Shown: positions 1,025 to 38,899 of the stretch, piece after piece | Layout: each line of letters opens with the position of its first letter | How positions within the stretch are numbered: the stretch's first letter is position 1 | Assembly (NCBI GenBank): GCA_913055215.1 | Contig: CAJXJP010000001.1 | Location: forward strand, 798-64,797 | Direction of reading: 5' to 3' | DNA from: an uncultured Candidatus Altimarinota bacterium | GTDB taxonomy: Bacteria; Patescibacteriota; Gracilibacteria; BD1-5; UBA6164 | Length of the DNA stretch: 64,000 nt | Notes under the pieces: model-generated | Databases searched by the model: none | Told to the model about the DNA's origin: nothing | What the model saw: the letters and a program-made list of their open reading frames with translations, nothing else | Position numbers and translations under genes: made by a program

Positions 1025-3604
1025 ATGAGAATTTTAAGGAAGCTCATAGCAATCGCTATATTAGCAATTTTCTGTTTCAACATAACAGGAGTTTCAGCTG
1101 CAAGTACCGATATGCAACGTGCATCAAAAAATATAATTCTAACAAAAGTAGAATTAAAAAAGATTAGAAATGGCGATAAATATATCAAACAACTTGATCT
1201 TGTAACAAAAAAATTTGCAGGGAATGAAGAAAAATTAAGAGAGTTTTCAAAAAATATTAGTAATGCAAAATACAAACTTGCTTATAGTAAATCATGAAAA
1301 TCAAAAAGAATTTTAGCTATTCTTAACTATTTAGAAGCAAAAGTTAATTATGAGTTAAAAAAAATAGCCGCTCAAGCTGATGAAAAGCTTGAAAAAACTT
1401 TGGAAGAAGTAAAAAAACCAACAATTTCTTCTTCTGATAAGAAAAAAGTTGAAGCTGAAATTGTAAAAATTCAATCAAATTTATTTGAAAATTGAGTAAA
1501 AAACTTTTGAACACTTACAAAAGAATTTGAAAAATTAACAAATTATGAAAACAAAGGTGATATCAAAATGAACCTAAATATTGACCAAGAACAAATTTGA
1601 AAAGTAAAAGCTGAATTAAAACTCAACAATTATACTGCTAAAAACTCAAACTTTGATTCTCAATTAAAAGGACATTTATCAGCAATGTTAGATGCTGCTC
1701 CAAAAAATCAAGAAGCAGTAAAATTAGAATTTTCTAACTTTTTAGACTTCATTCAAAAAGATTGAAATATGTATATTCTTATGAATGATTTAAAAATTGT
1801 TTCAGAAGAAAATGTAGATAATCTAAAAGAAATGATTGAAACTGCTAAAAAAATTGCAGAAGAAAACGAGTATATAGAATTTTCTGATAAACAAACTCAA
1901 GAAGCAATGAGAATATTAGAATCTTTTGCTCCAGAAAAAATAATTGCAGATGGAAGAACATATTTTTCGAAACCTATGTTTACGGCATATAAAAAAGAAG
2001 AAAATAAATATTATTTAGTTCCTTCAAAATATGCTTGTGACACTATGAAAGAAGTAATGAATAAGTTTGATCCAATACATGGTAAAACATGTAGTACAAA
2101 TCAATATAACGATCTTGTAAGAGAAATGCTTGGTGCGGGAAATCTTACGCTTGAACTTTGAAATACAAATACATTAGCATTTTCAGTTGATACTGCAAGA
2201 CATACAGATATAGATAAATTAGATATCACTCTTAAATTTAATGATTCTTCTGTAGAAGCATTAAATATGATGGTATTACCAAATCAAAAACAATTAAAAG
2301 GTGAAAAGTTAACAATTGATTATACAAAAAATAATTCATTAAACGCTTATTTTTATGCAAATAAAGGAGCTATTAATTATTCTTTGAAATCTACACTAGA
2401 CAGAAATAATAAATTCTCAGAAGTTACATATACTTGAAATTCTGCAACAAGATACCAAGATATAATTTCTACATTTACTCTAAACAATGGTACTTTTGAT
2501 GGTAATTTTGATGTTTTAACAAAAAACTTTAACAAAGCTGCATCTAAATATAGAGAAGAATTTAAAGCACAACTAAACGGAAACCTTGATAATAAAAATG
2601 ATGTAAAAGATTTTACTTTCACATATTATCAAAATGACCTTCAAAAAAATAAGAAAGACTTAGAAGGGACAATTAGTTACAAAAATAAAACAGTAACCGT
2701 TAAAAATAAATATACAGGATACAAAACAAATGCGGACTTAAGCTTTGTTGGAAAATGGGATACATATAATAAAAACTTCAAAGATTTTGATTTTAATCTT
2801 AAAGTATCTGAAGATGAAAAATATGACCTAGTTGTATCTGATATTTCATTAAAAAATGGTAAAATATCTGGTCTAACTGTTGTTTCTAGTGAAAAACAAT
2901 ATTTAGTGAAAATCAAAACTGATGGTTCATACGAAAAAGATTCTATAACTTTAAAAAATGCTATAGATATTCAACCAGAAATTATGAAAGCACTTGATCC
3001 TGAAACTATGCAAGTCTCAGTAAGAGATAGTTCAAGATTTTGAGATTTATATGAAATTCAAGATGAAATAAAAGCATTTGCTGATGAAAACGACTGAGTG
3101 TTTCCAACATCAAAACAATTACAGGAAAAATCAGAATTCTTACCTCAAGATCCAAAAGGATGAAAAGAAATTAATGAATGTAAATTTGGTTATACATACC
3201 AAGTAAATAAAGATTTAAGTGTTTATAAATTAACGGCTTGTAGAGAAAAAGAAAGTTATGATGGAAAAATGAAAATGACTCTTGGAAACTTTAAGCAATA
3301 TAATCCAGTAACTTATAAATTTGAAGAAAAAGAAGTTACAGGAGAAGTTATATATATTCACAACTATAATAATTGGGAAAAAGTTTCAGAAGAATCAAAA
3401 TGATTAAAATCTGCAACAGCAAATTATAATATTTCAATTGATTCAAAATGAACAAAAGATAATTCAAATATCTATTTTGATTTCAAATTCAATGATAAAA
3501 CTATCGTAGATTTTGAACTAGATGTAAAATCAAATACAGAATATAAAGATGTTGAAATTGAAGCACCTAAATCTTCTAAATCATATGATGAAATTATAAA
3601 ATAA
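1025..3604 (+). CDS. Secreted hypothetical protein, 859 aa, with an N-terminal signal peptide
   Basis: ATG 1025. I checked every codon to TAA 3602-3604 and found no TAA/TAG, with several in-frame TGA. The ORF-track pieces 1025..1297 and 1769..2161 share this frame. The N-terminus MRILRKLIAIAILAIFCFNITGVSAAS looks like a Sec signal. I recognised no family. Confidence 0.8.
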
Positions 3605-4508: not shown

Positions 4509-4534
4509 AAAAAGAGCCTACGGCTCTTTTTTTA
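4506..4534. terminator. Bidirectional terminator shared by convergent genes (agagcc-tac-ggctct flanked by A and T runs)
   Basis: Hairpin 4513-4527. The TAA stop of the giant minus-strand ORF (4532-4534) lies in its T/A tract. Confidence 0.7.
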
Positions 4535-7500
4535 TTGCATTATATATTCTCATTGGACTTTATACATAACCTCTGCTACTGTTTTTGCAAAATGTGCATC
4601 AACTAAACGCAGAATAATGTAATCTGATTCATGAGAGTATTCTAGCTTGTAGTTCCCATTGATAGTATCGATTCTCCCATCTTTGTAAATAATAAAGAGT
4701 GGTTCTTTATGTACATCACTGTTTCTATAAATAACCAGTGATCCTGGATTATAAGAAACAGTTTCTGGGATCAAATAATAATTATATGTCGATTTATCTA
4801 AGAATTTCACAAACAATCAATGTTTATCACCAAGTTCAAAATTTTCAACTAATTCAGTATGTGTAGTATTTCAAACTTTGATTTCTTGATTATAAACTGT
4901 TTGATTATTTTTTATAACATTAATCGATGGATAAACTCATTTATTTCTCACATCATTTGAAGAATAAGCTGATATTTTTACTCATACTTGTTTTGCTGTG
5001 ATTTTTCATGTAGTTTCATCAATTTCTGCAATAGTAGTACCATTTTGAGTTAATGTTAATCAAGAAGCTTCTTTTGAAATAGGGAAATTATATTCTCATT
5101 TTTCTGTTAAAGTTTCTTTCGTTTTATCAGCAGATTGTATAGGGGTAATAACTCCTCATCTTACTCTGAATAAACGAACCGGTTCTTTTTCTAAATCTTC
5201 ATTTATATAACCTGTAATTGTTTCATTATTCACTGTTTCGATTTCCGGAACTGGTGAATATACCTCAAAATTAATATCTTTTATTAGTGTATTTCCATTT
5301 GCATCAGTCATTCAAATAGAAATTTCTTTTTCAAATATTGAATCATATTCTCAGAACTCTGCTGTTATTTTTGCAAGAGTTCTTTGAATTGATACTTTTT
5401 CAACTGATTTATCATTTCTTGGATTTCCATCATTATTATCATCAACTTTTGGATCCATATCAATCCAAAAATCATGAATGTTTTTAATTCAACCATCTTC
5501 ATAAATAAATGGAGTGAAATCAAAAACTTGTTTTTGGTACACAGGGATTCTAATAACTTGTGCTAGTGATAATTCAGGAGAATTGTCATCTGCTACCACT
5601 TGAGGTGCCAGTAATGTTAATTTCGAAGAAGTTGAATATTTATTATTACGGAAAGCATAAGCTTTTGCATAATAGTAATCATTTTCTTGATTTACACGAA
5701 TTACATGGGATTCAGCAGTATATCCAAGATTGTATAATTCATATCTTTCAATATTGGTAAAATGAAGGTTTGCTTCAGATCCATCAAAATATTTTATATC
5801 AACATATGATTTTTCAGAAAGTCATTTTTTATCATTTTTAAACCAGATTTTTGTACCAAATCATAATGGTTTTCATAATAATAAACGTATTTCCTCTCCG
5901 TTATATGTCAATGTATTTGTATTTTGAATATATGCTGCATTATTCGCTCAAAGAACTTTAACAGTAGCATCAAATACGACATGAGAATATTTAGGAATAA
6001 GGACTTTGAATAATTCCTCTGATCCATCCATTCTATAATCTAAAGTAACCGATTGTTTTCATGCATAAACCGCAGTTCAAACTGAAATATTAACAACCGT
6101 ATTTTCTGATAGATTTTTTGTAATATTTGTTAAAGATGGTGTTTCAATCGTTAATCAATTTAATGTTCAAGCATTATTTATATATGCTAAATTAGAATAA
6201 AGAGAGTATCAATGTAGTTTTGAATCTAACAATGTATTTTCAGTATTACTAAATGCATCAATAATTGATTTTTTTGCATTTTTTGGACGATACGAATCAT
6301 TGTTTTGATTTTCAAACTTATCAATAATCGGATAATACTCAACTCTATAATTATTAATATCAGAATTTGTTGAAGCCTTAAATTTCATATTAATTGATCC
6401 GCTATCAATAGAGATTTCATTAAAATTATTTACTGCTGGAATAAACTCTCAACTAAAGAATTTATTATCGTCAGAACTAAATGTTAAAGTATTATAATCT
6501 TTTTTATTCGTTCTAATTACATCCAAATTTTCTTTAAAGTAAATTGCTCATTTTGACATATACAGTAAATCTTCATCTCCATCAGAATCCAAATCGATCA
6601 CTGTAGTTTGTTCATCTCCATCTACTTCTTCTAGATAATCAAACAATCTATAACTTGTATCATCTTCAACAACATAAAGTCCTTTATATGTATAACCATA
6701 ATCAGAATTATTTGATGCACTACAAGTGTTTGCAGAAGCTGGCTTTTTACCGGCTCATGACCATGTTCAAGTTTGTGCTGCTCTATATTTATCAATTGGA
6801 GAACTAACCGCTGCTAGTAATTCTGTTCCTTTTTCTTGAAGATCAGTTTTATACTCATCATCTCCAGCTTCAATTAAGTTATGTGCCGATTGGATAAATT
6901 TATCGTTATATTTCGACAATGCATCATTGTAAGCTGTAATACGTGATTCAGTTTTTGAAACAGGAATTGTATATTTTGGTTCGAGTAGTTTTTGAATATT
7001 TTTTGATTCTTCTTTCGTTCTTTGTAATTCAGTAGAAAGAATATTTTTTAAAGTTTCAAATTTTTCATAATTATTATTTTCTAGCTCTTTGATATATTTA
7101 TTTTCTTTTGAGTAGCTATAATTATCAACCTCATTCCATACATTTCTAAGTTTATCAAATTTAGGATCAGCAGCAAGCTTAGGTGACGCAAGATTATCAA
7201 AAACTGTTTGTTTAAATTCAGTATTTGAAACCGTTATATTTTTATTTTCTTCTAAATGGTTTAAGCCTTGTTCAATTCATGCTTTAGCAAAGATAACTAA
7301 TGCTAATACATTTTTCATTATATTTTCTTGAGAAATTTCAGTTTCAATATTTGATGAACCGTCAAGATTAACATCAATTTGAGTAGGAATAACTCTTGAG
7401 AAATCTAAATCAGAAACTTGGATATCTAATACACGAGTTGCATCATTAGAGAAACTATTAATTGGCATCGCAATTTGTTCAGCCAATTGGATAATAAAGT

Positions 7501-10500
7501 CTGTTTCAAATTCAAGATTTACATAACTTGTAACTTTAATTGCATCTACAAATGGATAACTAAATTGAGGTAGACTCAGATTTAAGAAATCAGTCGGAAG
7601 ATATCATTGTCTTTCCGTAATAAATGCAATTTGATCACCAGCTCTCCATTCAGGTACAAATGGACTTGTTTTCAATAGACACATTGCCTTTGTAATCAGT
7701 TTCAAAATATCCACTACTCACTCAAGTGAGGCAAATAATTTTGGAAGCGTTGGTGGTGGTGGTAAATTAGGAAGTTCAACTGTTGGTAAACTCGGTAGAT
7801 CAGGCAACTCTGGCAATTCAATTGTTGGTAAAATTGGAAGCGTTGGTAGATTTATATTTACCGTAGGGACATTTGGAAGAATTAGATCTGGTAGTAATGG
7901 TAAAATAATCGGACGACTTGCAAATTTGAATTCTGGTAATGCAATATCAAGTCATGCACGAATATTATGTAAATCCATAATAATATCAGGCCATTTTGGG
8001 AATAGAATAATTGGCATTTCTGGAATTACTGCTGAGATTAACTCCCATATAAATGCTTGTAAATCTCCACGTTCATTTTTACATTCATGACATTCAGCTT
8101 CATAGTCGATAAATATATCAACCATCAATTGCCATGATTTTAAAATCGCTTTAATTAATACATATAACTCAACCCATGCTTTAAATCTTTCTCCATTTTT
8201 TCCAATCCAACCTCATAATATTTCACCTATTGATTCAACATTACACATTACTTGTTCTATATATTTTTCTTTTGAATTTATAAGTGTATTAATGTCTTTT
8301 GGTAGATCTTTATATGATTGAATTACTTCAATATTTTGTTCTAATGAACGGATTAATCCTTCAGTTTGAAGAATTATTTTTTCTGATGCCGCATTTTTAT
8401 CTTCACAAGCTTTTTGATCTTCAGGTTTTGGTTCATTACACAATGCCCCAAATGACCATTCATTTTTTGCTCTTTCTAATTCTGCTTTCCGGCCATCTAA
8501 TGTTTCATTCCGGAGAATAATTGTTTTTTCAATTGTAGGTTCATCTACCCAAGGAAGATTTATATTAACTGATTCTTGAGAAATATTCACAAGTGGAATA
8601 TTTGATAAGAAAGCATACGCTTCTTTCATTCAAGAGTTTGCTGTATTAATTGCTCCTGTTCATACGAGTCAAGTAATATTTTTATCTACTTTTACTACAT
8701 CATCAACATCTTTTCATTCTGTTGTTCCTGTATCTAATATTCCAGAAAAATCAGGTAGGATAATATAGAGAGTTGGAAAATCAGTTAATTTTGTAACAAT
8801 TTCTTCAATTTGTCTTTCAACCCAATCAGACATAAGGAATGATGGGAAATCACTAATTTTTTGTTTTTGGATTTTAATAATATCTGCAAAATTTCATGCT
8901 TTAATAGAAGAGAAATCAACATTTACAGAAACTTCATCTCAAGTTCCTTGTCCATTCATATTAATCAATGGATTATTGAAGTTTTGAGTTGGAGTATTAT
9001 TTGGTTTCGCAACCTTTGTAAATGTATCTTTAAATTTGTCTTTTAAGTCAGATGAAACTTTTCAAGTTTTTTTGTAATCAAAATATTCTTTGACAAAATC
9101 AGGAGAGAGGTTTGATTGATTTTGTTTTGATGCTCAACTACAATTTCAATTATAAATCCCAAATCAACCCGCTGAAGTTTGAGCAAATCATGTTGAAGCA
9201 ATATCTCAATCTGATCCATCATCTTCACAACCAATCAAAGGCATAGCTGCAATAACACAGTTTCATCCTGGAACAAGTGGATGCATCCCTGGCATATTTG
9301 CATATCAAGCAACTATAGGTGGTCAACCAAAACATGCAGCCATCCCGACAGCTCATGTTAATGTCGGAGTAACAAAGATTCTAAATGTATTAGTTGGACT
9401 TATAGTTCCTAAATATCATCCAGCTCATAATGCTGCATTACATACTCATGTAAACATAAGAGGACTCATTGGCCATACAGTAGGAACTTGATAACATCAA
9501 ACTGGTGTTGGAACATTGATACCTGTTAATCAAGAAATTGTTGGAATTCATTCTCCAACCATTAATCAATCTCAAACTGGATATCCAAACAATGTAGGAT
9601 CTCAACCTGGAGCAAGAGGTGCCCAGTTCATTGGCGTTGCAATACATCACCCTCAACCAAATCAACATGATAAACCTTGCATGATAGTATCAACTCATTC
9701 TAATACCCCATTCACGTTTTCGCTCATTTTATCAAGATTTGAAGTCAGGCTTCATGCAAAATTACTATCATCATCTGAATCAGGTATTCCATCTCCATCT
9801 GAATCTTTATTCATTTTAGCTAATTGTTCTGATGCATATTTTTCCTTTTCAGCAGTTGAACCATTTACAAGTTTATCAATATAGTCTGGGACTCCATTGT
9901 TATTTTCATCTTGTTTATTTTGTTCTAAAACGTCAGGAAGTTTTAATTTATCAGAATCACATTGTGGATTTGTTATTTCTTTTTTATATGATCTTGTTCA
10001 AATAGATGCTAATATATCTGAAGCTTGTGAACAATTTTCTTTATTTCATTTAAATAGAACATCTCCATAGTTATCATCTCAAGCTGATCATTTTTCAAAT
10101 TTACCAACTTGAATATTTCAATACTTAATTGGATATGTTTTTAATTTATAGCTAAATGTTTTTGACTCATTTGGTTTTAGATCAAATCCATCAATTATAA
10201 AATTATATCCTGCTATATCAGTTGAAATATTTACTCATTCTTCTACTGTTAATGTTTGTCTATCAAATTCAAATATTTCTAATGATTCATCTGCATATGC
10301 AAATTTTTTCAATGTTTTATTTGATGTATTTTGAATTGTAACAGTAACATCTATATAATCGTCTGATTGTAATGGTTTCCCATTTGCATCATTGTAAACT
10401 TTTTTTACTTGAACTCATGCAATTTCACTATATTCACTACGAAGGAAACTTACTTGTTTTGTTTTTTTATAAGTAGCATTGATATCAATATTACTTTTAT

Positions 10501-13500
10501 TTTCTTCTAAGAATTTTTTTAGTGATTCTTGTGTTTGAGCCATAGAATCTCAAAGTTCCGGAGAATTTGGTAATTCTAATGTTTCTAATAATCAAGTAGC
10601 GCTGTTTTTAGCAACAATTTCAGTTCAATAAGGAAGAACAGTAAAAATAATACTATCTGCTAATTCATCGTTAATTCCTGCACTTTGAATGCTTACACTA
10701 CTTCATTCTCAAGTAGATCCATTTTGTTGACTACTAATATTGTTTTGTAAATTTGCGAGAGTATTTGCTAATTTACTTTTTTTATCTTTTTTAAAATCTT
10801 TTGAAGATTTAGAAACAATTCCTTCATAATAAACTGCTCATTTATCTGTTCTTGGTGCTGAATCCAGAGTAATAGCATAATCTTTTCAGATATTTAATTT
10901 TGTGAATTTTGGATTTTCTCATGTTCCTCATCCGTAGAAAACATTAATTTCTCAAGAATCATCTAAGATAACTACATCTTTAATTCCATCTGCATCCATA
11001 TCAAATACTTCAGACTGAACAACTTTTCCATTTAAATTAAATGCTTTTGTAAGATTAATACGATAAAAATCTTTTTCATTATTATTTAATAAAAATGGTT
11101 CTTTTTTATCATTAACAAAGAAAATATCATCATAACCATCTCATGTAAAATCTCATGCCTTTAATGTCTCAGGTGAAGATAGGTCTGCAACTTGTGCAAT
11201 ATATCATTTCCCTTGAACAAATTCTGAAGTTTCTGTATTTTCATAAAGACGAAGATAATCATCATTTTGTACGATCAGAATATCATCAAGATTATCGTTA
11301 TTGTAATCAAAAACTTGATACGATTCTATTTTATCATCATCTGATATTAAATTCCCAATAGTTGAATCAAATTTTCTATTTACTGATGTTTTTGGTAATT
11401 TTTTTCTTATTTTTTTCAGTGAAACAACAGGATCTCACAAGTTGATAACTGAGAAACTTTGATATTCTTTTACAGATTCTCAAACACTAGATCATGCTGA
11501 GAAATTTAATAATGTTTTATTTGCTTCTGACCATCAAAGTCCTCATTCTTTTACAGAGTTTTCATACGAAGATTGGTTCGATTTAGAAAATTCATTTAAA
11601 GTATAATCTGCAGCAAAAGGATCATTATAAAATATATTGATTTGATTTCCATTATTACTACTCAGTTCTCTTGAACTATAAGAGTTTGATGAAAGGTAAC
11701 CAATCACAGCATTTTTAAGAGTTTTTGATTTATTTTTGAATAAGGTATTATCACGAGAAATAGTAGAAATATAGTCTTTCATATTAAAGGCTAATTTTGC
11801 TACTATTTTTGTATCAACAATGATTTCAAAAATTGCATATTTATGACCAGAGTTAGAAACTGAAATATTTAAAATTCAGTTTTTGTCGATAGATCAATCT
11901 TTATTAATAGTAAGGATTATTTTTCAAAAACTATCTCTTAATACTAATTTATCTCATTCTTTGAATGTTTTGTATGAATCATTCACTGATTGTAAATATA
12001 TTCCTGAAGTTTTATCTTCATTAATACAAGCATTAAATGTTGATCAAGGACATAATTTCGTAATAACTTTATCATCAAAACGATACGTAAATTTACCTAC
12101 ATAACTATTAAGAGAGTCATTTTTATAATTTATATTTATAAAATTATCATCTATCTCAACATAAGAAACGATATCTTGTGATAAGTCTTCTGATGCACTC
12201 ACATTCTGAATAGAACCATTTTCCAATAGACTTAATACATCATTATAATTATATGGATTATTCAGTAGTGAAGTTACCGCTAATGCTCTATTATTTCTGT
12301 TAAATAATAAAGATCCCGCTAAATAATCTTTTTGTGAATAATCTCAATAGTTTGCTCATAATAATGTAGAATATAAAGCATTGTATTTTGTTTTATCAAT
12401 TGTTTTTTTATTCCAAAAGAAGAAAGTTTCTAATTTTCAGACATTTTCTCAAGCACCAGAAATAGTTACATCTTTTCCTCCATCTTTTATAATAAAATTA
12501 TTTCATGAAAGACTTGGTGAAGTAGAAATTTTAAAATATCCAACTCCTGGAGTATCCGTAACAGCAATTCACAATGTTGAAGTTCATCATTTTACCGTAG
12601 CGCTACTTTTAACTTCTCAAATAATTGATTTGTACTTTTGAAGTATTTCGATTTTAGTTTGTGTCGAATTATCATTAAATACAACATTTCCATATCTATC
12701 TTTTAATTCTGTTTTTACATAGTGAACATCTCAATCTTTTGCTTCTACTTTATCGCTACTCATTGACAAATCTACTTTTATAGCCTTATCTGGGTAAATA
12801 GTAATATTTCTTTTCGCAATTTTAGAAAGTCATTCTGCTTGAAATTCGACAGAAATATCTTTTCATGCAACCGTTCCAGTAAAGAATGAAACAATAGCTT
12901 CACCATTTTTTAATTCAAAATACGATTGTTTTGGATTTCAATATATATCACTTATCGTAAAATATATTCTCCCATTATAATCAGAAAGAATAGATCAAGT
13001 TTCTCCTCTTAATGAAACTTTAAATGAATATTCACCTCATCAAACTTTAAAGTTAGAACCTAAAGGTTGAGTCGATAGATTAATTTGTTTTAATACATTT
13101 AATTTTTTTGAAGATTTTAATAATTCTTTTCCAGAATTATCCTTAAGTATAAAATTGATATTTGCTACTCAAGTTTTAGCATTGGTTTTTAAACGGAAAA
13201 TTTTATATCATTCAAAAACACTTCCTGATAATTCTTGTGTATTATTTTCTTCAAATACAGTATCAGTTCAAGATATTTTAGCCTCTAATTCATAAAATTT
13301 TCAAACTACTGGATTTCAGAATCTGTCTAAAACAGTAGAGACATTTGAAGTAACTGCTCATCATAGTTCAGTTACTGTTGCTCACATATTTGTTACAATT
13401 TCTGATGGAGCCGCTGCTTCAATTACAAAATCTTTTTCAATTTTTTGTCCAGATTTGTCTACAATAGAGAGAGTATAATTTCATGATTCTTGATAATTTC

Positions 13501-16500
13501 AAAGAGATATGAAATTTGATATACTTTCTTTATTTATAACTATTGGTTCAGAAATATTTATATTATTTCTTTGTACTTGAATAGTAAGTGGATATCTGAT
13601 TTTTTGTTGTACTCAATTTTTATTAAAAGAATTCAATCAGAAAATCAATTTTTTATCAGCTTTAGAATCTTTAGAAATTTTTGGAATTATTTCATTTGAT
13701 TTTTGATTATAAGCATCGAAGAAATAAATATTTTTTTCTTCACTCGCTTCTATCATATTTTCAGATGATTGAATTTCGACATCTCACAATATATTTTCTG
13801 CAACATATGATGAAGCGAAAATTCTATCTGATCTAATTTCAATCTTTAAAGGTTCCGAATTAATTTTCTTAAATTCTTTATTATCTTTATCTTTTACAGA
13901 AATTGAAGCTGTAAAATAATAATTCGCTTCTTTCGCTTTTGATGAAAAACCAAAATTTGCTTGTCCTCAGGTAACTGGAATAATCGTATCATTGAAATCG
14001 ATATAAGGAAGTGATTGAGAATATTTATTATTCGTAACATCTCCTCTATCATAAATAGTTTTTACATTATCATTTGTAAATTCTTTTGTTGTATCTTTTA
14101 ATGTTTCAACTTTTTGTAATTTTAAATCTACTTTAGAAACATTGTCTAAACGAACTTGTACTCCCTTTTTATCAACTACTTTTGCTGTAAGTTTTCCAGA
14201 TTTTTGGAAATAGTAATTACTAGCATCGCTTGATAGAATAATTTTTCATCAATCGAATTTTTTCTCAATACAGTCATTTACACCATTTTTATTTACATCT
14301 CAGTTACATTGTTCGAACTCATCTCTCTCAACAGGAGAAAGAAGTGTAACTCAACATGTTCATTCAGAAATAGTAATTGCTGGTGGTAACATATCAGTTA
14401 GCCAACACATTATAGCTGGAATCCACTCAAAAATCATAACTCATTCAGGAGGAGCACATTTAAATGTTCCATTTTTTGATTTATTATTTTCTCTACTCAC
14501 ACTGACTCAAAGAAGAGCACTTGAAAGTTTTAGATTCTTAGAAATGATATCAGCATATGGATTTTCTGCTTTAGATTCTGGGTCAACTTTAACATACATG
14601 TTACTTGCATCACCAAATCAAGCTAAATATGCAATTTCATATAATTTTTTATTTTTTGGTAAATTAAAATTAAAATCATTATCAAATTGATCTGAAAGAT
14701 AATTTTCAAAAATAAATTTATATTTTGCAGAAACACTATTTAAGTTATTCCAGTGAACAGCAAAAGCTAATGTATCTAGATAATTTACATTTTTCTTATC
14801 TCAATAGTCATTTATTGTTCCGTTTGATTTTTTATCTTTCAACAATGAGTAAAGAGAAACTTTATCTCATGTGTTTGAGAGGGTTGTAGGATATGATCAA
14901 ATTTTTAGTAAATTATATAGTTCTTGATTTTTTCAAGATAATTTACTTGGATTATGATTTGTAATAAGAGTATTCATTTGAGTTGTCACTCAATCTAAAT
15001 GTTTTTTTAACTCTTCTTTAGATGAAGCAAAACTCAAATCATTTACATCAACAGTATTAACTCTAAATAAATTCGGATACTTGATTTTAGCATAGTCTCC
15101 ATCTGCAGCAATAAAGTCAATATATCTATCTTTGTTAACTGGCAGATCAGGAGTAATTAATGCTGAAACTTGTTCAGATAATTGTTCAGCAGTTGGTGCA
15201 TTATGAATTATATGAGAAGTAATTCACTTATAATTATAATTCACATTATGCCAGTTGTTATAGGCAGAAGATCCAGTGGTAGAATTTGCACTTCATGAAC
15301 ATTCATAATCTCAATCACGATCTCTACTATCAACATAAGAAGCTGAATCGATACTCACTCAATCCAAATTAATATTTTTTCTTGTACATCTTTCTACAGA
15401 AATATTTTTATAAACATCTTTTAATTTAGGAATACTTGGTCAAGATGTTGTGAGAGTGAGTGGATTCCAGTTATTATTATTTTTTGAATAGGCAATTCCG
15501 TTTACTGGAGCTGTATACCTAGTTTTACATTCATATTGTGGCCCGCTTCCGTTTGATCATCATCCCCAAGAAGTTCTTACTAATTCTTCTTTCGATGTTA
15601 ATAACATATTTGTATTATAACATTGAAGTGGTGATGGATTTAATAATGCATTTTTAGATTCAACTGATCCCGCAATATCAAAAAGTGGACGTATCGACTT
15701 TTTAGTATCGCTTGTTCATAGTTTAATTTTACCAGATGCTGCACTTGAATTATCTAGATTTAAAGCACTGTTACCTCACCAATATCATAAAGACATTTTA
15801 TGTGCATTTGCTCATGCTCATAATTGAACTTTTGTTGCAAGTTCTACATCTGATTTAACATTATGCACGTTGTGTCATCTATTCGCCTCTACAAGTTTTC
15901 ATCAATTTTCTGTAGATCATCTGTAAATCGTACATTCAGATGCATTAGTAATATCTTTTGTCTGTTGTCCAAATAGGAAATTTTCATAATCGCTTATACA
16001 ATCATTATATCAAGCTCCTCAACTTCTATATGTAGTTGGTATTGCTATTTTTCTAGCTAAACCTGACGTAACTATAGTATTAATATACGATTCTAAATCG
16101 TTATTTGTGTCTAATATAATTTTATCACTTACTAAATCAAGAGAAGTGATTAGATGAGGAATAAGGTCTACATTAACCTTAGATCCAGCCTGATTATATC
16201 TTCAAGCATTATGGACATTTCATCTAAACGTTCAGATAGAACCTTTAGAAAATATTTCAACAAATTTTTTAATTGAATTTTTTACAATGTGTCTTGTTTG
16301 AATATCAGGTGATATAGATACATCAGGTCCATTTGATAAAGCTGATACATCAATCCCTAAATTTACTTTATCTGCAATTTCTCAGATTTGTCTATTTTGA
16401 TCTCATAACATTTCAGATTGAAGAAGTGTTGCAAGAGCTTTTGTATATCTCTTATAGACAATGTCTTCTTTGAAATTTAAATAAGAACGGTATCAAATAT

Positions 16501-17242
16501 AATTATTAAAATTAATAGATTGAGATTCTCTAAATGCATCAAAATAAAAAACATATGGTTCATAGGTACTTGGAACAAAACTTCTTTTATCTCCATTTAT
16601 TACATTCGTTGAAAGTTTAAAGTTTCATGAACCCGTATAATACTCATGATTTTTTGCAAAATAATCTTTTAATGCTTGAATGTTGTTTTTTTCAGAACCT
16701 GTATTTGGTGAAATAACTCAATGCCAAATTTCAGGTTTGATTCATTCATTAGAATCTGAATTAACAATATATCTTCAAATTGTTTCATCAAAAATATAAG
16801 ATTTATTTTTAAAATCTGTATATGGTAAAATAGTTTTATCGCTTGATTCATTACCCGTAACTATTGGGGTTGGAATATCTCAAACTAGAACCGTCCCTAC
16901 AAGCCTTGAATCAATATTTGATTTCTTAAGCCCTTTAATTCCATCAAAATAAAGTGATTCATTGAGTGATGCAATCTGATACGACGTAGCATTACTTGGT
17001 GTTGGTAAAATAATAACTTGTGTATTATCAAGTACACTTCATATATCATCAGCATATTTTTCTACTTCTGAACGTATTTTTGAGTATACATTTTCATTCA
17101 CCAAAATAGAGACTATATCTCTATAGTCATTAGTTTTGGCATATAAGCTTGAATGAAATATTGGAACTCTAAAAGTAATAGAGAAAAATAATGAGAAAAT
17201 CACTAAAAATGATAAGAATTTTTGCGCTCTAGAGTAATTCAT
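4532..17242 (-). CDS. Giant secreted or surface multidomain protein, 4,236 aa (signal peptide, FG-GAP/VCBS-like repeats, Asp-rich Ca-binding-like motifs, Ig-like repeats, Gly/Pro/Cys module, LPxLP repeat)
   Basis: ATG at 17242. I inspected all codons down to TAA 4532-4534 and found no TAA or TAG. My hand count gives roughly 160 in-frame TGA. All sizeable minus-strand ORF-track pieces here (17039..17242, 12044..12226, 11543..11782, 8213..8629, 7277..7486, 4550..4816) are in this one frame. N-terminus: MNYSRAQKFLSFLVIFSLFFSITF...LYA. Confidence 0.85.
7742..7912 (-). repeat. Coding tandem LPxLP-type repeat inside the giant ORF
   Basis: Hand translation: PIILPLLPDLILPNVPTVNINLPTLPILPTIELPELPDLPSLPTVELPNLPPPPTLPKL. 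Confidence 0.85.
9121..9720 (-). other. TGA-dense Gly/Pro/Cys-rich hydrophobic module of the giant ORF
   Basis: About 23 in-frame TGA in 200 codons, against about 3-4% elsewhere in the ORF. Translation includes CGFGGGGCIATPMNWAPLAPGGDPTLFGYPVGDGLMVGEGIP...GVCNAALGAGGYLG...AACFGGPPIVAGYANMPGMHPLVPGGNCVIAAMPLIGCEDDGSDGD. Confidence 0.8.
10920..11340 (-). other. Three consecutive FG-GAP/VCBS-like repeats in the giant ORF
   Basis: Hand translation: VFDYNNDNLDDILIVQNDDYLRLYEN; AGDFTGDGYDDIFFVNDKK; VFDMDADGIKDVVILDDSGEINVFYGGG. Confidence 0.65.
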
Positions 17243-17274: not shown

Positions 17275-17312
17275 AAAGCCAGTTTTTAACATTTTAGTTA
17301 AAAACTGGCTTT
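17275..17312 (-). terminator. serS terminator: perfect 16-bp stem (aaagccagtttttaac / gttaaaaactggcttt)
   Basis: Inverted repeat with a 6-nt loop. It lies between the serS stop and the giant ORF start. Confidence 0.7.
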
Positions 17313-17369
17313 AATCAAACAATTTTTGTACTATTTTAGTATACAAAATTTATGATTATTTTTAGATTT

Positions 17370-24253: not shown

Positions 24254-24727
24254 CTATTTAAAAGAAGTCAAAGCTTTGATAGTTGCTCTAGCGTTATTGA
24301 TAAGGTTAGTTGAACCATATCTTTTAGCAAGGATATCTTTATATCCAGCAACCATAAGTACTTTTCTCACAGCACCACCAGCGATGATCCCCGTACCTTT
24401 TGAAGCAGGGTGAACCATTACTTTAGCTGCTTTGAATTTAGCTTCTAAGTTGTAAGGAACAGTTCCTTCAACCATAGTAACTTCAGTTAAATTTTTCTTA
24501 GCATTCGCTACTGCTTTTGCAATTGCGTCTACAACTTCCCATGATTTCCCAGTACCAAGTGCAACTCTTCCTTTTCCATCACCGATAACCATAACAGCTC
24601 TGAATCTAAGTTGTCTACCACCTGCTGTAACTCTCGTTACTCTATCAATGGCAAGAAGTTCTTCTTTGAACTCTTTTCTTGGTTTTGAAAATTGTCATTT
24701 TCTATTATCTTTTTTAGAAAAAGCCAT
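24254..24727 (-). CDS. rpsE: 30S ribosomal protein S5
   Basis: MAFSKKDNRKGQFSKPRKEFKEELLAIDRVTRVTAGGRQLRFRAV...; TAG stop. Confidence 0.95.
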
Positions 24728-25142: not shown

Positions 25143-25679
25143 CTATTTACCAGTTTTACCAGCTTTTCTTCTAATATGTTCTCCAACATATTTGATCCCT
25201 TTACCTTTATATGGTTCAGGTTTTTTCTTAGCTCTGATTTTTGCAGCAAATTCACCTACTAGTTGTTTATCAGTCCCAGTAATATGAATTGTATTTTTAA
25301 GCTTTTCATCAGCAGCAACTTTTAATCCAGCTGGTACTTCCATATCAACTTTGTGAGAGAAACCAACGCTTAGTACTAATTTTTGTCCTTGGACTTCAAA
25401 TTTGTAACCAACACCATTAATTTCTAAACTTTTTTTGTATCCTTCAGTAACCCCAACAACCATATTATTAATAATAGCTCTTGTTGTTCCCCATAATGCT
25501 TTTGCATCATCATTTAAAGGTTTTACAGTAATTTGATTTTCTTCTTTAATTACTTCTACATTTGAAGCATGAGTAAAAGATAATTCCCCTAAAGGACCTT
25601 TTACTTTAATTTCTCCATTAGATAAAGTAGCTTCTACTTTATCTGATAATGCAACAGGTAATTTACCAATTCTTGACAT
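25143..25679 (-). CDS. rplF: 50S ribosomal protein L6
   Basis: Intact 178-aa ORF with typical L6 sequence; operon position. Confidence 0.95.
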
Positions 25680-25753
25680 TATTGATTGTATTAAAATATA
25701 AACTGGATAAATAACATTAAGTTATTTCTCATTTATAATAGACAGAAAGTATA

Positions 25754-26149
25754 TTAATATACTTCACAAAGTAATTCACCACCAACATTTAAACTTCTAG
25801 CTTCGTAACCTGTAACAACACCTTTTGGAGTAGATACAACGTAGATCCCGTGTCCGTTTCTAGATTTTTTAATATCTTTTGCAGCAACATAGATTCTTTG
25901 TCCTGGTTTACTAATTCTTTTTAAAGTAGGAATGTATTTAGTAACTCTTACATTGTTCAGAGTAATTAATATAGATTTTTTGTTATTATCTTCAGAAGTA
26001 ATTTCAAAATCACTTAAGTATTTATTTTTCTTAAGAATTTTTAGAATATCTGCTCTTATTTTAGAATGTGGAACTTTTACTTCTACAATTCTAGCTAAGT
26101 ATGCATTTCTAATTCTTGTTAATAAATCTCCGATTGGATCTATTATCAT
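25754..26149 (-). CDS. rpsH: 30S ribosomal protein S8
   Basis: Intact 131-aa ORF: MIIDPIGDLLTRIRNA... Confidence 0.95.
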   Translation of the reverse strand: MIIDPIGDLLTRIRNAYLARIVEVKVPHSKIRADILKILKKNKYLSDFEITSEDNNKKSILITLNNVRVTKYIPTLKRISKPGQRIYVAAKDIKKSRNGHGIYVVSTPKGVVTGYEARSLNVGGELLCEVY

Positions 26150-26194
26150 AACAATAAAATTAATAATTAAATCTAATTTTTGACCTTGTTGATA

Positions 26195-26419
26195 TTACCA
26201 ACTTGATTTTCTTACACCTGGCAGTTCACCAGCGTTTGCTTTTTCTCTAAAACAAATTCTACAAATATCAAATTTACCAAGGTAACCTCTAGTTCTACCA
26301 CAAATACTACAGTTATTGAAAACTTTAGTAGCATTTTTTGGTTTTCTACCATCAGCTATCGCTTGAATAAATTTCTTTTTTAATTTATTTGCTTTAGCAA
26401 TTTTTGACTTTCTAGCCAT
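26195..26419 (-). CDS. rpsN: 30S ribosomal protein S14, zinc-ribbon (CxxC...CxxC) form
   Basis: 74 aa, [23 protein letters not shown]...W; operon position. Confidence 0.9.
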
Positions 26420-26445
26420 CTTTATATTGTTTATAAAGTAAATAA

Positions 26446-26982
26446 TTATTTAGAGAAAGGGAATCCCATTTGTGTTAGTAATTCTCTTCCAGCTTCTTTT
26501 GATTTAGCAGTAGTTTTTACTGTAATTTGAAGACCGTGTGATTTAACTACATCATCTTGTGGCACTTCTAAGAAGATTGTGTGTTCTTTGATACCGAAGT
26601 TGTAGTTTCCTTCTTTATCAAAACCATTTTTATTTACCCCTCTAAAGTCTCTTACTCTAGGTAAAACTACATGTACTAATTTATCTAAGAAATTGTACAT
26701 TTTATCACCTCTTAGGGTAACAGTTAAACCTACAGGCATACCAGCTCTTAACTTAAAGTTAGAAACCGCTTTTTTAGCGTATCTAACTGTACAAGCTTGA
26801 CCAGCAATTGCTGATAAGTGGTTTTGAATAGCAGAATAATCTTTATTTCCATTTCTAATGAAAGTACCGATCCCCATATTTAAAACTACTTTTTCAACTT
26901 TTGGAACATCCATAACGTTTGAAATTTCAAGCTTTTCTTTTAAAGCAGGAATGATTTCGTTAATATATTTTTCCTTAAGCAT
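26446..26982 (-). CDS. rplE: 50S ribosomal protein L5
   Basis: Intact 178-aa ORF with typical L5 sequence. Confidence 0.95.
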
Positions 26983-32724: not shown

Positions 32725-34656
32725 TTATTTTTTCTCTGAAATTGTATAAGTATTTCTTCCTTTATCTTTTGATTCATATAAAGCTAAATCTGCCTGTTGT
32801 GATAATTGGTCTCTTATATGTTTTTCTAACATTCCAGGATATTCTTTATTTCAAATATCAACCTTGTGGAACATAGCAATATCAGCGACATCTTCAACCA
32901 TAGCACTTGAGTCTGAATATTTTCTAAGAATCAAATCATTCAACACCTGACTAACATTAAACTGAGTGACTCAAATACTTACCGTTATATCATCCTTAAT
33001 AGCAATATTTTCTTCTTCTATAATTCTATTTACAGAAGGAGTTAAACAATCTTTAATAGCTGTATTGATTTTTTTACAAAACTTTTCAACATTTGATGAT
33101 CTTGCAATAATAGCAAATTCTTCTCAACCAATTCTATACACATCATCTCATCTTCTTTTTATATCATGTGTTCTTGTTTCGTTCAATAAAATATCTGAGA
33201 AAGATTTCAAAGCAACATCTCATACATGATGTCAGTAAGTATCATTAACTTTTTTAAAATGGTCAATATCCATAGTAAGTAAATATAAATCTTCTTCCGA
33301 TATTTCTTCGCTCGTAATTCATTGAATTCTTTGCTTCATATCATCTTTATATTTTTGTCTATTCGGTATTCCTGTTAATGTATCATAGTTGGCCTGTCTA
33401 TATAATCTTGCATTTACTACTTTTTGTAGTTGAGCACTCATATCAGAAACTCCACGAGCCATCCCAGCTGAGTAAGAATATCATTTATCAAGATTAAAAG
33501 TTGTTAATGCATGAACTAATTCTTGAGTTAGATATGCAATTTTATCATTTTCTTCCTTTGAGGCATGATTTATTGAAGAATAATTTCTTAACAAATAGAA
33601 GACTTCAACAATAACCAAGTCAATCAATTCACTTTCAGACATTACAAGATCAATATAATCTTGTATAGTCTCTGCTGGTCCCATTACTTTATTATATCCA
33701 AGCTTATTTGAATAACTATTGAGAATATACGCTAACGATTCCTTTTCTTCTTTTAATTCTAGAGGAGTAATTCCATCTAAATCATTATATCTTGTATAAT
33801 AAGATAAATCTAGGTGTAATTTTGCATTCACAAAATCAAAATTTTCTCTTAAACTATTTTTATGTAAATCATCTTCATTTAATACAAGTTCAGATGATAT
33901 CAATTTTTTTTCTTTTTCAATAAAATCATATGCCCCTTCTATTTTATCGCGCGTATCGTCAATTATTGATCTTAACTCATTAATATTGTCTACATTTGTT
34001 AAATTCTTTAAATGTAGGAAATTTAATGTAAATCTTGCAGCTTTAAATTTAATTTTTTTATTGTATAGTTCTATTTCTTTTATATAAGAATCATCAACAA
34101 AAAGTTCTTCAAGATCAGTGAGTGTATTTGTGATATTTCATAAAACGACTTCTGAGACTTTTGTAACGAGATTATCAATTTTTGATAAATCTTTTTGATT
34201 AATTGAACATACAAATAGTAGTGTTGAATAAATTCTTAATATATCTAATGTTTGTTCTAATATAATTCAGATATCAGATATTCTCTGTAATGATCACAGT
34301 CTTGTTCATACAGATTCAACGAAAGAATCAAATAACTTATCTAAAAAATCAACATTAGTTTCTAATATAAGTTTTTTGAAAAATTGTTCTTTGTTGTCTA
34401 CAAATTTTGAAATTCAATAATCTAACAATAAGTCATAAATTCCTTGAATTGATGCTTTGTTATGATTATTCTTAAATACATTGTTTAAAATTTCACCAGT
34501 CACATCAAAATTCTCTGCATCTAATACAGAATCAACCTTATCTACAATAATGTTTTGTTCCGTGTCAAGACTTTCTCCTCATGACAAAACAGCCCCTACT
34601 TTATCAGTAGAAGCTGGAGTATGTCCTGTAATTAAGTGAGGAGATCTGCGAACCAT
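32725..34656 (-). CDS. GGDEF-domain diguanylate cyclase with a roughly 440-aa N-terminal region of unknown function, 643 aa
   Basis: C-terminal domain: DTLTGIPNR, DIDHFKKVNDTYGHHVGD, RRGD (I-site-like), YRIGGEEFAII (second Gly encoded by TGA at 33124-33126), ADLALYESKDKGRNTY. Confidence 0.85.
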
Positions 34657-37115: not shown

Positions 37116-38195
37116 ATGCTCTTTTATTTATTTTTATTCTTATTATCGGTTTGAGTATCATGGTGAATGACACTATTATTCTCAAAATTATTTTATAAAT
37201 GGAATATTTTAGATAATCCCAAAAAATATGGGTTAACAAGAAATCCAATTCCTTATAGTATGGGAATTGTATTCTTTATTTCATTTTTTTTAATTAGTTT
37301 TTTTGCTCTCGATTACAATTTTAAACTCTGACTTATTTGGGTATTTTGATTCTTTATTACTTGAATTAGTTTTATTGATGATAGACTAGATGTAAGTCCA
37401 AAAATTCGTTTATTTTTTCAAATTCTTATTTGAGCCATCATTTGAATTACTTCTATTAAAATATGATACATAAGTAATATTTTTGGTGGAATTGTAAATT
37501 TAGAAACGTACTTTGTAGAAATATTACAAATAAAAATTTATCTTGTCCCTTTGTTTTTTACAATACTTTGGTATGTTTTTATTTTTAATGCATTAAATTG
37601 GACAGATGGAATTCAATGAAATACTTCATGAATTTCAATTATATCTTTTTTCATATTATTTGTATTAGGAATAATCCTTTTTCATAGAGATAATTACATA
37701 CAATGAATTGAAAACGCAGAATTCATTATGTGAATGTCTATCATTCTTGTTGGGATCCTTATACCATTTTGGTATTATGATTTTTGACAAAAGATCTTAA
37801 TGTGAGACAGCTGAACCATGTTTTTGTGATTCATGTTGGCAACAATGGCAATCATAGCATGAGGGAAAATAGCAACCGTTTTGGTAGTATTCTGAATCTA
37901 TGCTGTTGATGCACTTTATGTAATAATTAGAAGATTATTAAGTAAAAAAAGTCCATTAAGATGAGATTATACTCATCTTCATCATAGACTTTTAAAACTC
38001 GGTCTCTCGAAAAAAGAAGTTTTATATCTTGTATACAGTCTTTCTCTCATATTTTGAATAACTGCATTATTTTTAGATAAAACCGGTAAAATTATTGTTG
38101 GTTTGATTATAGTTTTTGTCGTTATATTTATTAACAAAATTGTAGAATTATGAATTCTTTCAAGCAAAAAGTTAATTGAGAAAGTAAAAAAATAA
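37116..38195 (+). CDS. Glycosyltransferase family 4 polyprenyl-phosphate sugar-1-phosphate transferase (WecA/TagO/MraY-like)
   Basis: IDDRLDVSP, NALNWTDGIQG, MGDSGTMFLG, THLHHRLLKLG; many TM segments and many TGA=Gly. Confidence 0.8.
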
Positions 38196-38899
38196 AAGCT
38201 TTTACATTAATAGAACTTATAGTAGTAAGTTCTATTATGGTATTAATCAGTGCAACATCAGTTTTCTATTTTATAGATTTTATTCATCTGCAAGAAGCTG
38301 AACAAAAAGCTGAACTTTTGGAATTAGATATTCAAAAATATGATCAATCAATTAAAAATAAAGAAATTTATGATTACACTATGTTTTTTAACACAGATAA
38401 ATCAGAGCAATGATATGTAACTTATACAAATAATTTTGATATTCCATTTTCCCAAGAGTTAGATTATAATTCTATCTCTGGTATCTGACAAATTAGCTCT
38501 AATGCTAGTTCTTCAAATGTTTGGAAGCTTCAGTTTTTTGAAAAACATAAAAAAATTGATACGAAAACAATTGCCTGAGATAGTAATTCATTTTTTTCAT
38601 TTAAAAATAGCCAAGTCTATAAAATTATTTGAAAAATAGACAATACAGTCTTAAATACAATTCATGTTTATTATTTTAGTTCAGAAAATTTGAACTCGAA
38701 TACAGAATGAAAGCTACGATTAATAAGTATTCAAAATACAGAAAAAAATCCTTCTGAAATTTATACAGAATTAGAAATTAAAAATATTGCTGGAAAAAAA
38801 ATATTTACAGCGAAAAATAATTCCTGAGAAAAAATTATAACTGAAGTTTATCTAAAGTTTGATCTCAATTGAAAAGAAATATATCTCTTAATACAATAA
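38150..38899 (+). CDS. Type IV pilin / pseudopilin-like protein (prepilin-type N-terminal methylation motif), 249 aa
   Basis: MNSFKQKVNGESKKIKA-FTLIELIVVSSIMVLIS..., the class III signal motif with Ala at -1. The ATG is the only in-frame start and overlaps the previous gene by 46 nt. Confidence 0.6.

Follow-up and report, generated by a model that had tools for sequence, protein, structure and literature searches.

Genetic code and integrity of the giant gene

The window analysed here, that is, the whole 64-kb stretch of 64,000 nucleotides (nt) from a Gracilibacteria genome, carries on its reverse strand a giant open reading frame (ORF) that occupies one 12,711-nt frame from position 17242 to position 4532. 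Translation of the reverse complement gave 4,236 sense codons followed by TAA; within the frame there were 163 TGA, 25 TGG, and 131 GGN codons and no internal TAA or TAG. In the remaining five frames of 4532–17242, TAA or TAG made up 2.5–7.8% of the codons, and the runner-up TAA/TAG-free frame in the window was 863 codons long. Calculated from the base composition (28% GC genome), the probability of 4,236 consecutive codons without TAA or TAG was ~1e-132. The start at ATG 17242 is supported by the nearest in-frame stop, 18 codons upstream, the intervening codons including no ATG, GTG, or TTG, and by the signal-like N-terminus that the orthologues share. An earlier examination of the DNA letters alone (hereafter, the sequence-only reading) had described a single 12.7-kb ORF of 4,236 amino acids (aa) free of TAA and TAG, with about 160 in-frame TGA codons counted by hand. 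The recount confirmed every element of this description and made the TGA count exact, and the motifs that had been quoted were all found in their places after translation with table 25.

The genetic code was assessed on the serine hydroxymethyltransferase (SHMT) gene of the window. Four of its five TGA codons align with glycine in PDB chain 3pgy and the fifth with glycine in 5vmb; since TGA stands at conserved glycines of this housekeeping protein, the genome uses code 25 (TGA = Gly). TGA codons occur in most genes of the window, and with TGA read as sense the window becomes a dense, ordinary gene map that includes a ribosomal-protein operon, secY, serS, fusA, glyA, ruvB, and mutL. Read as Gly, the TGA codons give the giant protein a content of 6.9% Gly and 0.6% Trp; read as Trp, they would give 4.4% Trp. 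Translation table 25 is characteristic of Gracilibacteria and Absconditabacteria (PMC11452946). No tRNA-Gly(UCA) was found within the 64-kb window.

The possibility that the frame is an artefact, namely a pseudogene, an assembly chimera, or adjacent genes seemingly fused by TGA readthrough, is suggested by the standard code, which cuts the frame into 164 pieces at its 163 TGA codons, and by public code-11 gene calls, in which the orthologues appear as strings of fragments. However, the alignment of the SHMT TGA codons with conserved glycines and the length of the TAA/TAG-free frame at 28% GC speak against it, as do the amino acid conservation along the entire length and the orthologues with merely 3–9 TGA codons (loci L003, L005, L056, and L064), each of which still forms one frame of 4,121–4,396 codons. 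In addition, the gene contains no assembly-type repeats and no tandem DNA repeats except for one short 13-nt array near the start codon. An artefactual origin is essentially excluded: the giant interval is one gene for one protein under code 25.

A collinear family of giant proteins in Gracilibacteria

Word-indexed searches retrieved 14 proteins with the central module of the giant protein and 18 proteins with its N-terminal 1,000 aa. Most of these were fragments, and all organism-labelled matches of both searches belonged to Candidatus Gracilibacteria. The fragments formed runs of same-strand pieces, as code-11 gene calling would give; re-read with code 25, the runs became single stop-free frames of 4,121–4,362 codons with the same signal-like N-terminus. 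Because standard-code calling breaks the gene into dozens of fragments in the majority of public annotations, the family is largely hidden in protein databases. Four full-length homologues, including loci L001, L003, and L005, were collinear end to end in a four-way alignment. An exhaustive profile search with the central module then yielded 679 cluster representatives with E <= 1e-3, of which 350 reached E <= 1e-30; many were 3,500–6,066 aa long and carried the core module at a comparable relative position.

A scan of GTDB species genomes revealed relatives of the core encoded in at least 130 of them, including the closed genome CP042461.1 (locus L009). Of the 58 loci bounded by stops at both ends, 53 were single frames of more than 3,800 codons (median 4,246), and the five shorter ones (2,455–3,419 codons) look truncated or split. 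Every stop-bounded locus contained in-frame TGA codons (3–297), the number of which rose as the GC content of the locus dropped from 58% to 21%. An alignment of 51 orthologues, L009 included, to which the conservation values of single residues given below refer, contained 289 positions conserved at 95% or more and 16 cysteines, an even number, conserved in at least 96% of sequences. Identity among the orthologues was 40–60% in the core and 13–40% elsewhere. One contig, CALDZW010000037.1 (27,956 nt), held two loci, L045 and L046, in opposite orientation with identical match coordinates and ORF statistics, a pattern that points to an assembly artefact of the inverted-duplicate (palindromic) type in this metagenome-assembled genome.

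The family, which has no name, is defined here by a signature core of ~470 aa, and all motifs of this core are present at aa 3051–3211 of the window protein. Full-length collinearity and a length of ~4,000–4,500 aa as one code-25 ORF, the further marks of a member, were observed in the four-way and 51-way alignments and across the 58 loci. Judged by its sequence, the window protein is this genome's orthologue in a collinear family of giant proteins that extends across the Gracilibacteria clade, apparently with one copy per genome. The sequence-only reading had taken the protein to be lineage-specific and had recognised no characterised homologue for it as a whole. The first point agrees with the distribution obtained, as the family is confined to Gracilibacteria with distant relatives in Peregrinibacteria, and the second agrees with the searches of Pfam, NCBIfam, PDB, and Foldseek. 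No Absconditabacteria-labelled match appeared in any of the homology searches, and the obtainable taxon labels do not settle presence in that lineage.

The distant members (4,699–6,066 aa, the largest being 6,066 aa) were called as single intact proteins by the source annotation pipelines. The Peregrinibacteria member P0119 (4,699 aa), named “S-layer homology domain-containing protein,” carries SLH and TSP3_bac domains according to Pfam, and an SLH domain is also listed for members P0158 and P0176. The source-database names in the family are of the adhesin type: “VCBS repeat-containing,” “fimbrial isopeptide formation D2,” and “TIGR01451 repeat.” Giant Gracilibacteria proteins annotated as VCBS repeat-containing or hypothetical are present in GenBank, namely MCD5380636.1 (P0034, 4,004 aa), MDD2487531.1 (P0037, 4,224 aa), and the CP042461.1 orthologue. 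These are true orthologues, with the core at the same relative position and the same N-terminal signal pattern, and they differ from the window protein in sequence only; as they have no assigned function, they name the family but not its mechanism. Sieber et al. (2019) described a hypervariable PTD-repeat gene, which was considered and set aside as a different gene, since PTD occurs only once and unrepeated in the giant orthologue of the same genome (L009).

Domain architecture and signature core

The regions of the giant protein, from the N- to the C-terminus, are as follows.

4532–17242 (−): whole giant ORF, 4,236 codons plus TAA, ~470 kDa, isoelectric point (pI) ~5.05, 163 TGA read as Gly
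17138–17242 (−): aa 1–35, predicted signal peptide or signal anchor of the Sec type, with a basic n-region and hydrophobic FLSFLVIFSLFFSITF followed by ...SSLYA|K
15563–17137 (−): aa 36–560, conserved N-terminal domain (conservation in 51 orthologues)
14243–15562 (−): aa 561–1000, variable Cys-containing stretch, then the motif C929-APPEG...W940...C946...PP...C963 (conservation)
12443–14242 (−): aa 1001–1600, beta-rich region of putative immunoglobulin (Ig)-like repeats of the invasin/Big_1 type (sub-threshold Pfam matches)
11393–12442 (−): aa 1601–1950, with a conserved YNALYSTLLGANYGD...YLAG block (aa ~1620–1645) and the Cys pair C1731/C1739
10913–11320 (−): aa ~1975–2110, FG-GAP/VCBS-like repeats in three stretches (Pfam FG-GAP_3 above cut-off)
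9767–9925 (−): aa 2440–2492, Asp-rich TSP3-like calcium-type motifs, NNNGVPDYID and DSDGDGIPDSDDD (aa 2480–2492), read from the sequence
9140–9676 (−): aa 2523–2701, Gly/Pro/Cys module, GLSCGFGGGxC...NWAPLAPG...TPTLTG...CFG...GGNC...C
7463–8860 (−): aa ~2795–3260, family signature core, the best-conserved part of the protein
8081–8092 (−): invariant CxxC of the core, C3051-H-E-C3054, at the end of a long helix (conservation)
7742–7936 (−): aa 3103–3167, Pro-rich LPxLP run of the core; prolines at least 95% conserved, many three residues apart, PPPP at the end
6743–7462 (−): aa 3261–3500, poorly conserved region after the core (conservation only)
4535–6742 (−): aa 3501–4236, C-terminal beta-rich region with DLDSDGDEDLLY at aa 3550–3561 and a conserved C-terminus

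The first 35 residues are the only strongly hydrophobic N-terminal segment (Kyte–Doolittle 2.01), and hydropathy revealed no further membrane-span-like segment in the giant protein. The 5′-complete orthologues all begin alike, with the pattern “M.YS+.QKF.S..LIFSLLFS.TF.VP.” The Sec-type signal or anchor that had been recognised from the letters is therefore present as a hydrophobic segment whose pattern is kept in the orthologues, and it would direct export of the protein or retain it as an anchor.

In the N-terminal domain, residues D143, F144, K147, W173, H174, D235, E259, R265, R348, C437, and C541 were conserved in at least 95% of the orthologues, and aa 36–560 had no Pfam, NCBIfam, or PDB sequence match. 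A loose likeness of this region to the C25/gingipain fold had been proposed, as a weak inference, from the segment LVGTVLVGDIPTPIV...PYTDF...PEIWHGVIS, which was located at aa 113–177. The motif of the giant proteins, “LVGD..IP ... D.[FY] ... E[IV]w.G.i.P,” resembles its RgpB counterpart, “LLVGDHKDIP...SDQVY...EVFIGRF,” and over a handful of residues the likeness in sequence is genuine. Three sequence tests were nevertheless negative: Peptidase_C25 (PF01364) gave no match at E <= 1 in the 18 N-terminal homologues, the domain matched no PDB sequence, and hhalign against the RgpB catalytic domain (residues 72–348, validated against PDB 1cvr and 4ief) returned a probability of 0.24% and left the motif region unaligned. 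In addition, a manual motif comparison, as distinct from an alignment, found no conserved GHG-type His or strand-end Cys with C25-like spacing after the motif. The conserved residues that follow it are VFYxD235, and the nearest conserved cysteine is C437, with H174 and C437 lying ~260 residues apart. The C25/gingipain assignment was rejected on the grounds of the three sequence tests.

The middle part of the protein contains the modules on which its comparison with adhesins is based. Cysteines C929, C946, and C963 were at least 98% conserved. The following region, aa 1001–1600, is among the more variable parts of the protein, and it includes the D-[RK]-[FY]-G-N motifs DRFGN (aa 1306) and DRYGN (aa 1515), of which D1306, N1310, D1515, and N1519 were conserved in at least 95% of the orthologues. 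Neither Big_1 (PF02369) nor Invasin_D3 (PF09134) exceeded the Pfam cut-off in the window protein or its homologues; below the threshold, Invasin_D3 was matched in homologues (E 5e-4 to 7e-4), Big_1 with E 0.022, and Glyco_hydro2_C5 in the window protein with E 0.018. An Ig-like fold of these repeats is plausible. The D-R-[FY]-G-N motifs noted in the sequence-only reading thus stand, whereas its assignment of Ig-like domains is weak, all Pfam matches being sub-threshold.

The three FG-GAP/VCBS-like repeats, which had likewise been read by eye, were recovered by FG-GAP_3 (PF13517; curated Pfam cut-off, 26.9 bits) with 33.4 bits and E 7e-8, and in a second scan with 54.5 bits and E 1.7e-14 over three stretches; DMDADGIKD at aa 2081 lies within this region. 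Most of the giant protein had no Pfam or NCBIfam match at all. The Asp run regarded as thrombospondin-type-3-like, DSDGDGIPDSDDD, is present, but its membership in a Pfam family was not borne out: TSP3_bac (PF18884) had no match in the window protein at E <= 1 and appeared above the threshold only in the distant member P0119, at another position. The Asp-rich loops may bind calcium. The Gly/Pro/Cys module, in which seven cysteines were at least 96% conserved, had no Pfam or NCBIfam match, and the AlphaFold model had low confidence over it.

The signature core combines the motifs FPxFxMxW..RQ.EE, long helices, CxxCxNER, FPKWPDIxxDLHxxR, a Pro-rich run, and PEWRAGDxIAxxTERxG. Over aa 3001–3250, identity was 53–61% without gaps in the four-way alignment, and conservation among the 51 orthologues was 0.67–0.75; the core is kept end to end even in the distant members of 5,000–6,066 aa. 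Near-invariant across the wider family are the CxxC (C3051/C3054), FPKWPDI..D, C3188, PE..TER, and ~20 prolines, and the conserved cysteines of the core are four: C3000, C3051, C3054, and C3188. The Cys-containing helical region and the LPxLP repeat of the sequence-only reading both belong to this core, with EAECHECKNERGDLQAF at aa 3048–3064 and LPxLP at aa ~3103–3167. Neither Pfam nor NCBIfam matched the core, and a profile search of PDB sequences was also negative.

The structure was modelled on the closest database homologue, P0001, which has 59% identity to the window module (BLASTP, 99% coverage) and 61% in the alignment. AlphaFold2 with 13 sequences gave a predicted local distance difference test score (pLDDT) of 40.9 and was unusable; with 55 diverse sequences, pLDDT reached 70–95 over P0001 ~500–845, which corresponds to window aa ~2890–3215, the whole-model mean being 65 and the first ~95 core residues having lower, mixed confidence. 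The confident part is made up of two beta hairpins, a 36-residue helix, a 72-residue helix, a Pro-rich segment, and another helix, and the LPxLP run was modelled as a non-helical segment with pLDDT 75–90. In Foldseek searches with the core model, no match was significant, the best E being 0.76 in PDB and 0.29 in BFVD; as parts of the query model have low confidence, the lack of a match is absence of evidence and does not prove a new fold. Viral structural relatives of the core were accordingly not found in BFVD. A transmembrane hairpin in the core was rejected, since both hydrophobic helices are charged and lie inside the confidently modelled part.

Antigen I/II-family streptococcal adhesins have a stalk in which an alpha-helix is paired with a polyproline-II helix. 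The core, with its helices of 36 and 72 residues and an invariant period-3 proline run of ~60 residues, might work in an analogous way; antigen I/II gave no Foldseek match to the core and shares no sequence similarity with it, so that the comparison concerns the possible working of the core and not family membership.

The hydrophobic features of this part of the protein also bear on a different explanation, in which the Gly/Pro/Cys module and the amphipathic core helices would insert into or perturb a prey membrane in a Tc-toxin-like or fusion-like manner, while the remainder would target the prey surface. Such an attack or delivery device would accord with the Gly-rich hydrophobic module at aa 2523–2701, with the amphipathic hydrophobic helices that flank the Pro-rich run (Kyte–Doolittle up to 2.09 in L005), with weak Foldseek matches to the Tc toxin A subunit (E 2.4–4.7), and with the predatory life of related Absconditabacteria, which consume the host cytoplasm (PMC8080830). 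However, the Tc toxin A matches were not significant (probability 0.02–0.05, root-mean-square deviation >30 A) and of the generic long-helix kind, and a Tc toxin A-type fold of the core was rejected. The hydrophobic helices contain Lys, Glu, and Asp, unlike membrane spans, no toxin, Rhs, or MACPF-type domain was found in Pfam or NCBIfam, and the C-terminus is a conserved motif and not a variable toxin tip. A membrane-attacking role, unsupported by these observations, is improbable.

Beyond the core, aa 3261–3500 looks helical as judged by sequence. The C-terminal region, described in the sequence-only reading as ~1,000 aa with DxDxDG motifs, does contain DLDSDGDEDLLY; its only domain match was a weak one to fn3 (E 0.089), and by the division adopted here the beta-rich part begins at aa 3501. 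All orthologues end alike, with the pattern ...Y.L.Y...(D)...[IV]A.[VI]L[YF]K[IV]...[YF][IV][IVLM][KR]-COOH (window 4535–4670, −), which could be a sorting or assembly signal, although none of known type was recognised. No LP.[TSA]G motif of the LPXTG type occurs anywhere in the window protein, which also has no C-terminal hydrophobic segment, and Pfam detected no SLH domain (PF00395) in it. Nor was a beta-barrel anchor or a type-1-secretion signal recognised.

Genomic neighbourhood and probable function

The elements that flank the giant gene are the following.

17275–17312 (−): perfect 16-bp hairpin with U-tract, terminator-like, located after the serS stop and before the start of the giant ORF
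17291–17318 (−): promoter-like TTGATT-16-TAAAAT (17318–17291), overlapping the hairpin, with the −10 hexamer in the loop
3708–4508 (+): secreted CAP/cysteine-rich secretory family gene (PF00188, E 4e-12), convergent, 23 nt from the giant stop
1025–3604 (+): gene for a secreted 859-aa protein without a Pfam match, convergent to the giant gene, beyond the CAP gene

The RNA fold of the hairpin had −22.8 kcal/mol and z −6.9, and none of 200 shuffles was as stable. The hairpin could be the serS terminator, a regulatory element of the giant gene, or both. As the hairpin and U-tract coincide with a promoter-like site, the giant gene is probably transcribed as a unit of its own. Between the CAP gene and the giant gene, no terminator-like site was found. 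A convergent Wzy-like membrane-protein gene lies downstream of the giant gene, and a FemAB-family gene is also among the neighbours. In a subclade that includes the closed genome CP042461.1, synteny is retained, in accordance with the shared gene order that the sequence-only reading had recommended looking for: serS lies upstream in 17 loci, and downstream the 859-aa gene is present in 16 and the Wzy-like gene in 19. The 859-aa protein may be a functional partner of the giant protein, or the adjacency may merely be inherited synteny. The flanking genes show no dedicated secretion or assembly operon, and inference of function from an operon was dropped, as they are unrelated housekeeping and envelope genes.

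Several other features of the window were recorded. A prepilin-like ORF with the motif KAFTLIELIVV lies at 38150–38899 (+), ~21 kb from the giant gene. In the ribosomal operon, the gap between S5 (24254–24727, −) and L15 (23771–24226, −), whose identities were read from translations and not from a family scan, is 27 nt, with no uL30 gene between them; CPR (candidate phyla radiation) bacteria are described as often lacking uL30 in a passage of PMC9297842. Directly upstream of rplC, a 643-aa ORF with 14 TGA codons (32725–34656, −) ends in a GGEEF motif of the GGDEF (diguanylate-cyclase) type; it is an unusual neighbour at the start of an S10-type operon, and the 180-nt gap contains no ORF of rpsJ size.

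With respect to function, we consider attachment at the cell surface the most likely role, by a modest measure, with the giant protein as a calcium-stabilised, disulfide-bonded surface fibre or adhesin. The features that suggest a surface fibre are an N-terminus resembling a signal, an even number of conserved cysteines, motifs of the FG-GAP, Ig-like, and Asp-rich kinds, and an acidic pI, together with the SLH domain of the Peregrinibacteria relative and the adhesin-type source names. The protein would be exported via Sec by its N-terminal signal, or be retained by that signal as an anchor, and would form outside the cell a long multi-domain fibre held by disulfides and stabilised by calcium. 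Its FG-GAP/VCBS propeller-type repeats, Ig-like beta-sandwich repeats, and Asp-rich loops would be the outward-facing, more variable, ligand-binding parts, and the invariant ~470-residue core together with the Gly/Pro/Cys module would act as a conserved structural or assembly hub. Such a fibre may mediate cell-to-cell attachment to a host or prey. The export, surface location, calcium binding, disulfides, and adhesive role proposed here are all predicted, and the host-contact role, for which the sequence-only reading had named this protein the best candidate in the window, is suggested by the domain types and by the literature on related organisms.

Among known proteins, Ig-like and FG-GAP adhesins (invasin/intimin Big_1; VCBS/FG-GAP, IPR010221) share with the window protein FG-GAP_3, D-x-[FY]-G-N, DxDxDG loops, and an acidic character (the pI of the window protein being ~5.05). 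Unlike them, the window protein has no long near-identical repeat arrays, beta-barrel anchor, type-1-secretion signal, or LPXTG, and its core and N-terminal domain have no counterpart in invasin or VCBS adhesins as judged by Pfam, NCBIfam, and PDB sequence. In Vampirococcus lugosii, an Absconditabacterium and thus of a sister lineage that also uses code 25 (PMC11452946), the ten longest proteins (1,392–4,163 aa) were considered membrane or surface proteins for host attachment (PMC8080830), and integrin/FG-GAP-type domains have been reported among these giants. Its hypothetical protein VAMP_16_20 (4,163 aa) is near in size to the window protein (4,236 aa), to which it is likened by description and not by sequence. 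Enrichment of Peregrinibacteria in proteins of >5,000 aa without COG assignment has been reported (PMC11573180). A metaproteome included VCBS repeat proteins of WB Gracilibacteria 25_16 and 25_26 (PMC11452946), and these genomes, loci L033 and L025, each carry an orthologue of the giant gene; the detected VCBS proteins may be these orthologues.

Several observations weigh against an adhesive role. The adhesin-type modules cover a minority of the protein, most of which has no recognisable domain, and there is no recognisable C-terminal cell-wall or membrane anchor such as LPXTG or SLH. Typical adhesins vary in repeat number and have a patchy distribution; the giant protein is collinear, near-constant in length, apparently one per genome, and surrounded by housekeeping genes, as would suit a core part of the envelope, with no need for a host-specific role. 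A conserved element of the envelope would explain these properties no less well than an adhesin that evolves fast and is specific to a host. In addition, the TGA share of its Gly codons differs from that of highly expressed genes, which argues weakly against a very abundant, S-layer-like product.

The main rival explanation is accordingly a conserved envelope scaffold or S-layer-like organiser, involved in shape, division, or pilus and surface architecture, whose adhesin-type domains would attach to wall polymers of the same cell or to adjacent copies of the protein. It would account for the near-universal, apparently single-copy occurrence at a median of 4,246 codons across loci of 21–58% GC, and for the strict collinearity with 289 near-invariant positions. 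The syntenic housekeeping and envelope neighbours serS, FemAB-family, and Wzy-like, and the SLH domain of the Peregrinibacteria member, point in the same direction, as does a prepilin-type gene (PF07963 N_methyl; L086, 640–1158) immediately upstream of the gene for the distant 6,066-aa homologue P0158. However, ligand-binding adhesins are the more typical setting of FG-GAP and invasin-like modules, and the window protein has neither SLH nor another wall-binding domain. Codon usage is also not that expected of an abundant lattice protein. The TGA share of Gly codons differs greatly among the genes of the window, for example fusA (42487–44631), ribosomal proteins (25143–26982), and 47991–49475, and TGA seems to be avoided as a Gly codon in highly expressed genes: its share was 0/57 in EF-G and 0–0.2 in most ribosomal proteins, SecY, and EF-P, and rose to as much as 0.83 in genes for membrane proteins or proteins of unknown function. 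The giant gene, with 0.55, resembles the ordinary genes of the window. A scaffold is, on this evidence, possible but doubtful.

A bolder proposal, which we regard as speculative and rather unlikely to hold, is a lineage-defining, near-essential envelope machine of Gracilibacteria and Peregrinibacteria instead of a variable adhesin of the ordinary kind. Its core would be a new fold serving as the assembly or force-bearing hub of an episymbiont–host contact structure that possibly perturbs the host envelope, and its N-terminal domain, in which Asp, His, Glu, Arg, and Cys residues are invariant, would represent an enzyme of a new kind.

Giant surface proteins have already been reported in this clade, and GenBank lists orthologues of the window gene under the names “VCBS repeat-containing” or hypothetical protein, so that its kind comes as no surprise. 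What is new here is that these proteins form a single orthologous family of constant architecture across the clade, and that most of the protein, the core included, matches no known family and no solved or viral predicted structure. A practical lesson is that standard-code gene calls hide this family in protein databases. No representative of Gracilibacteria (BD1-5) has been reported in culture (PMC11452946). For the question of how Gracilibacteria, Absconditabacteria, and Peregrinibacteria attach to and exploit their hosts, one orthologous giant protein in at least 130 species genomes, with a constant architecture and a core without a known fold, offers a concrete clade-wide target.

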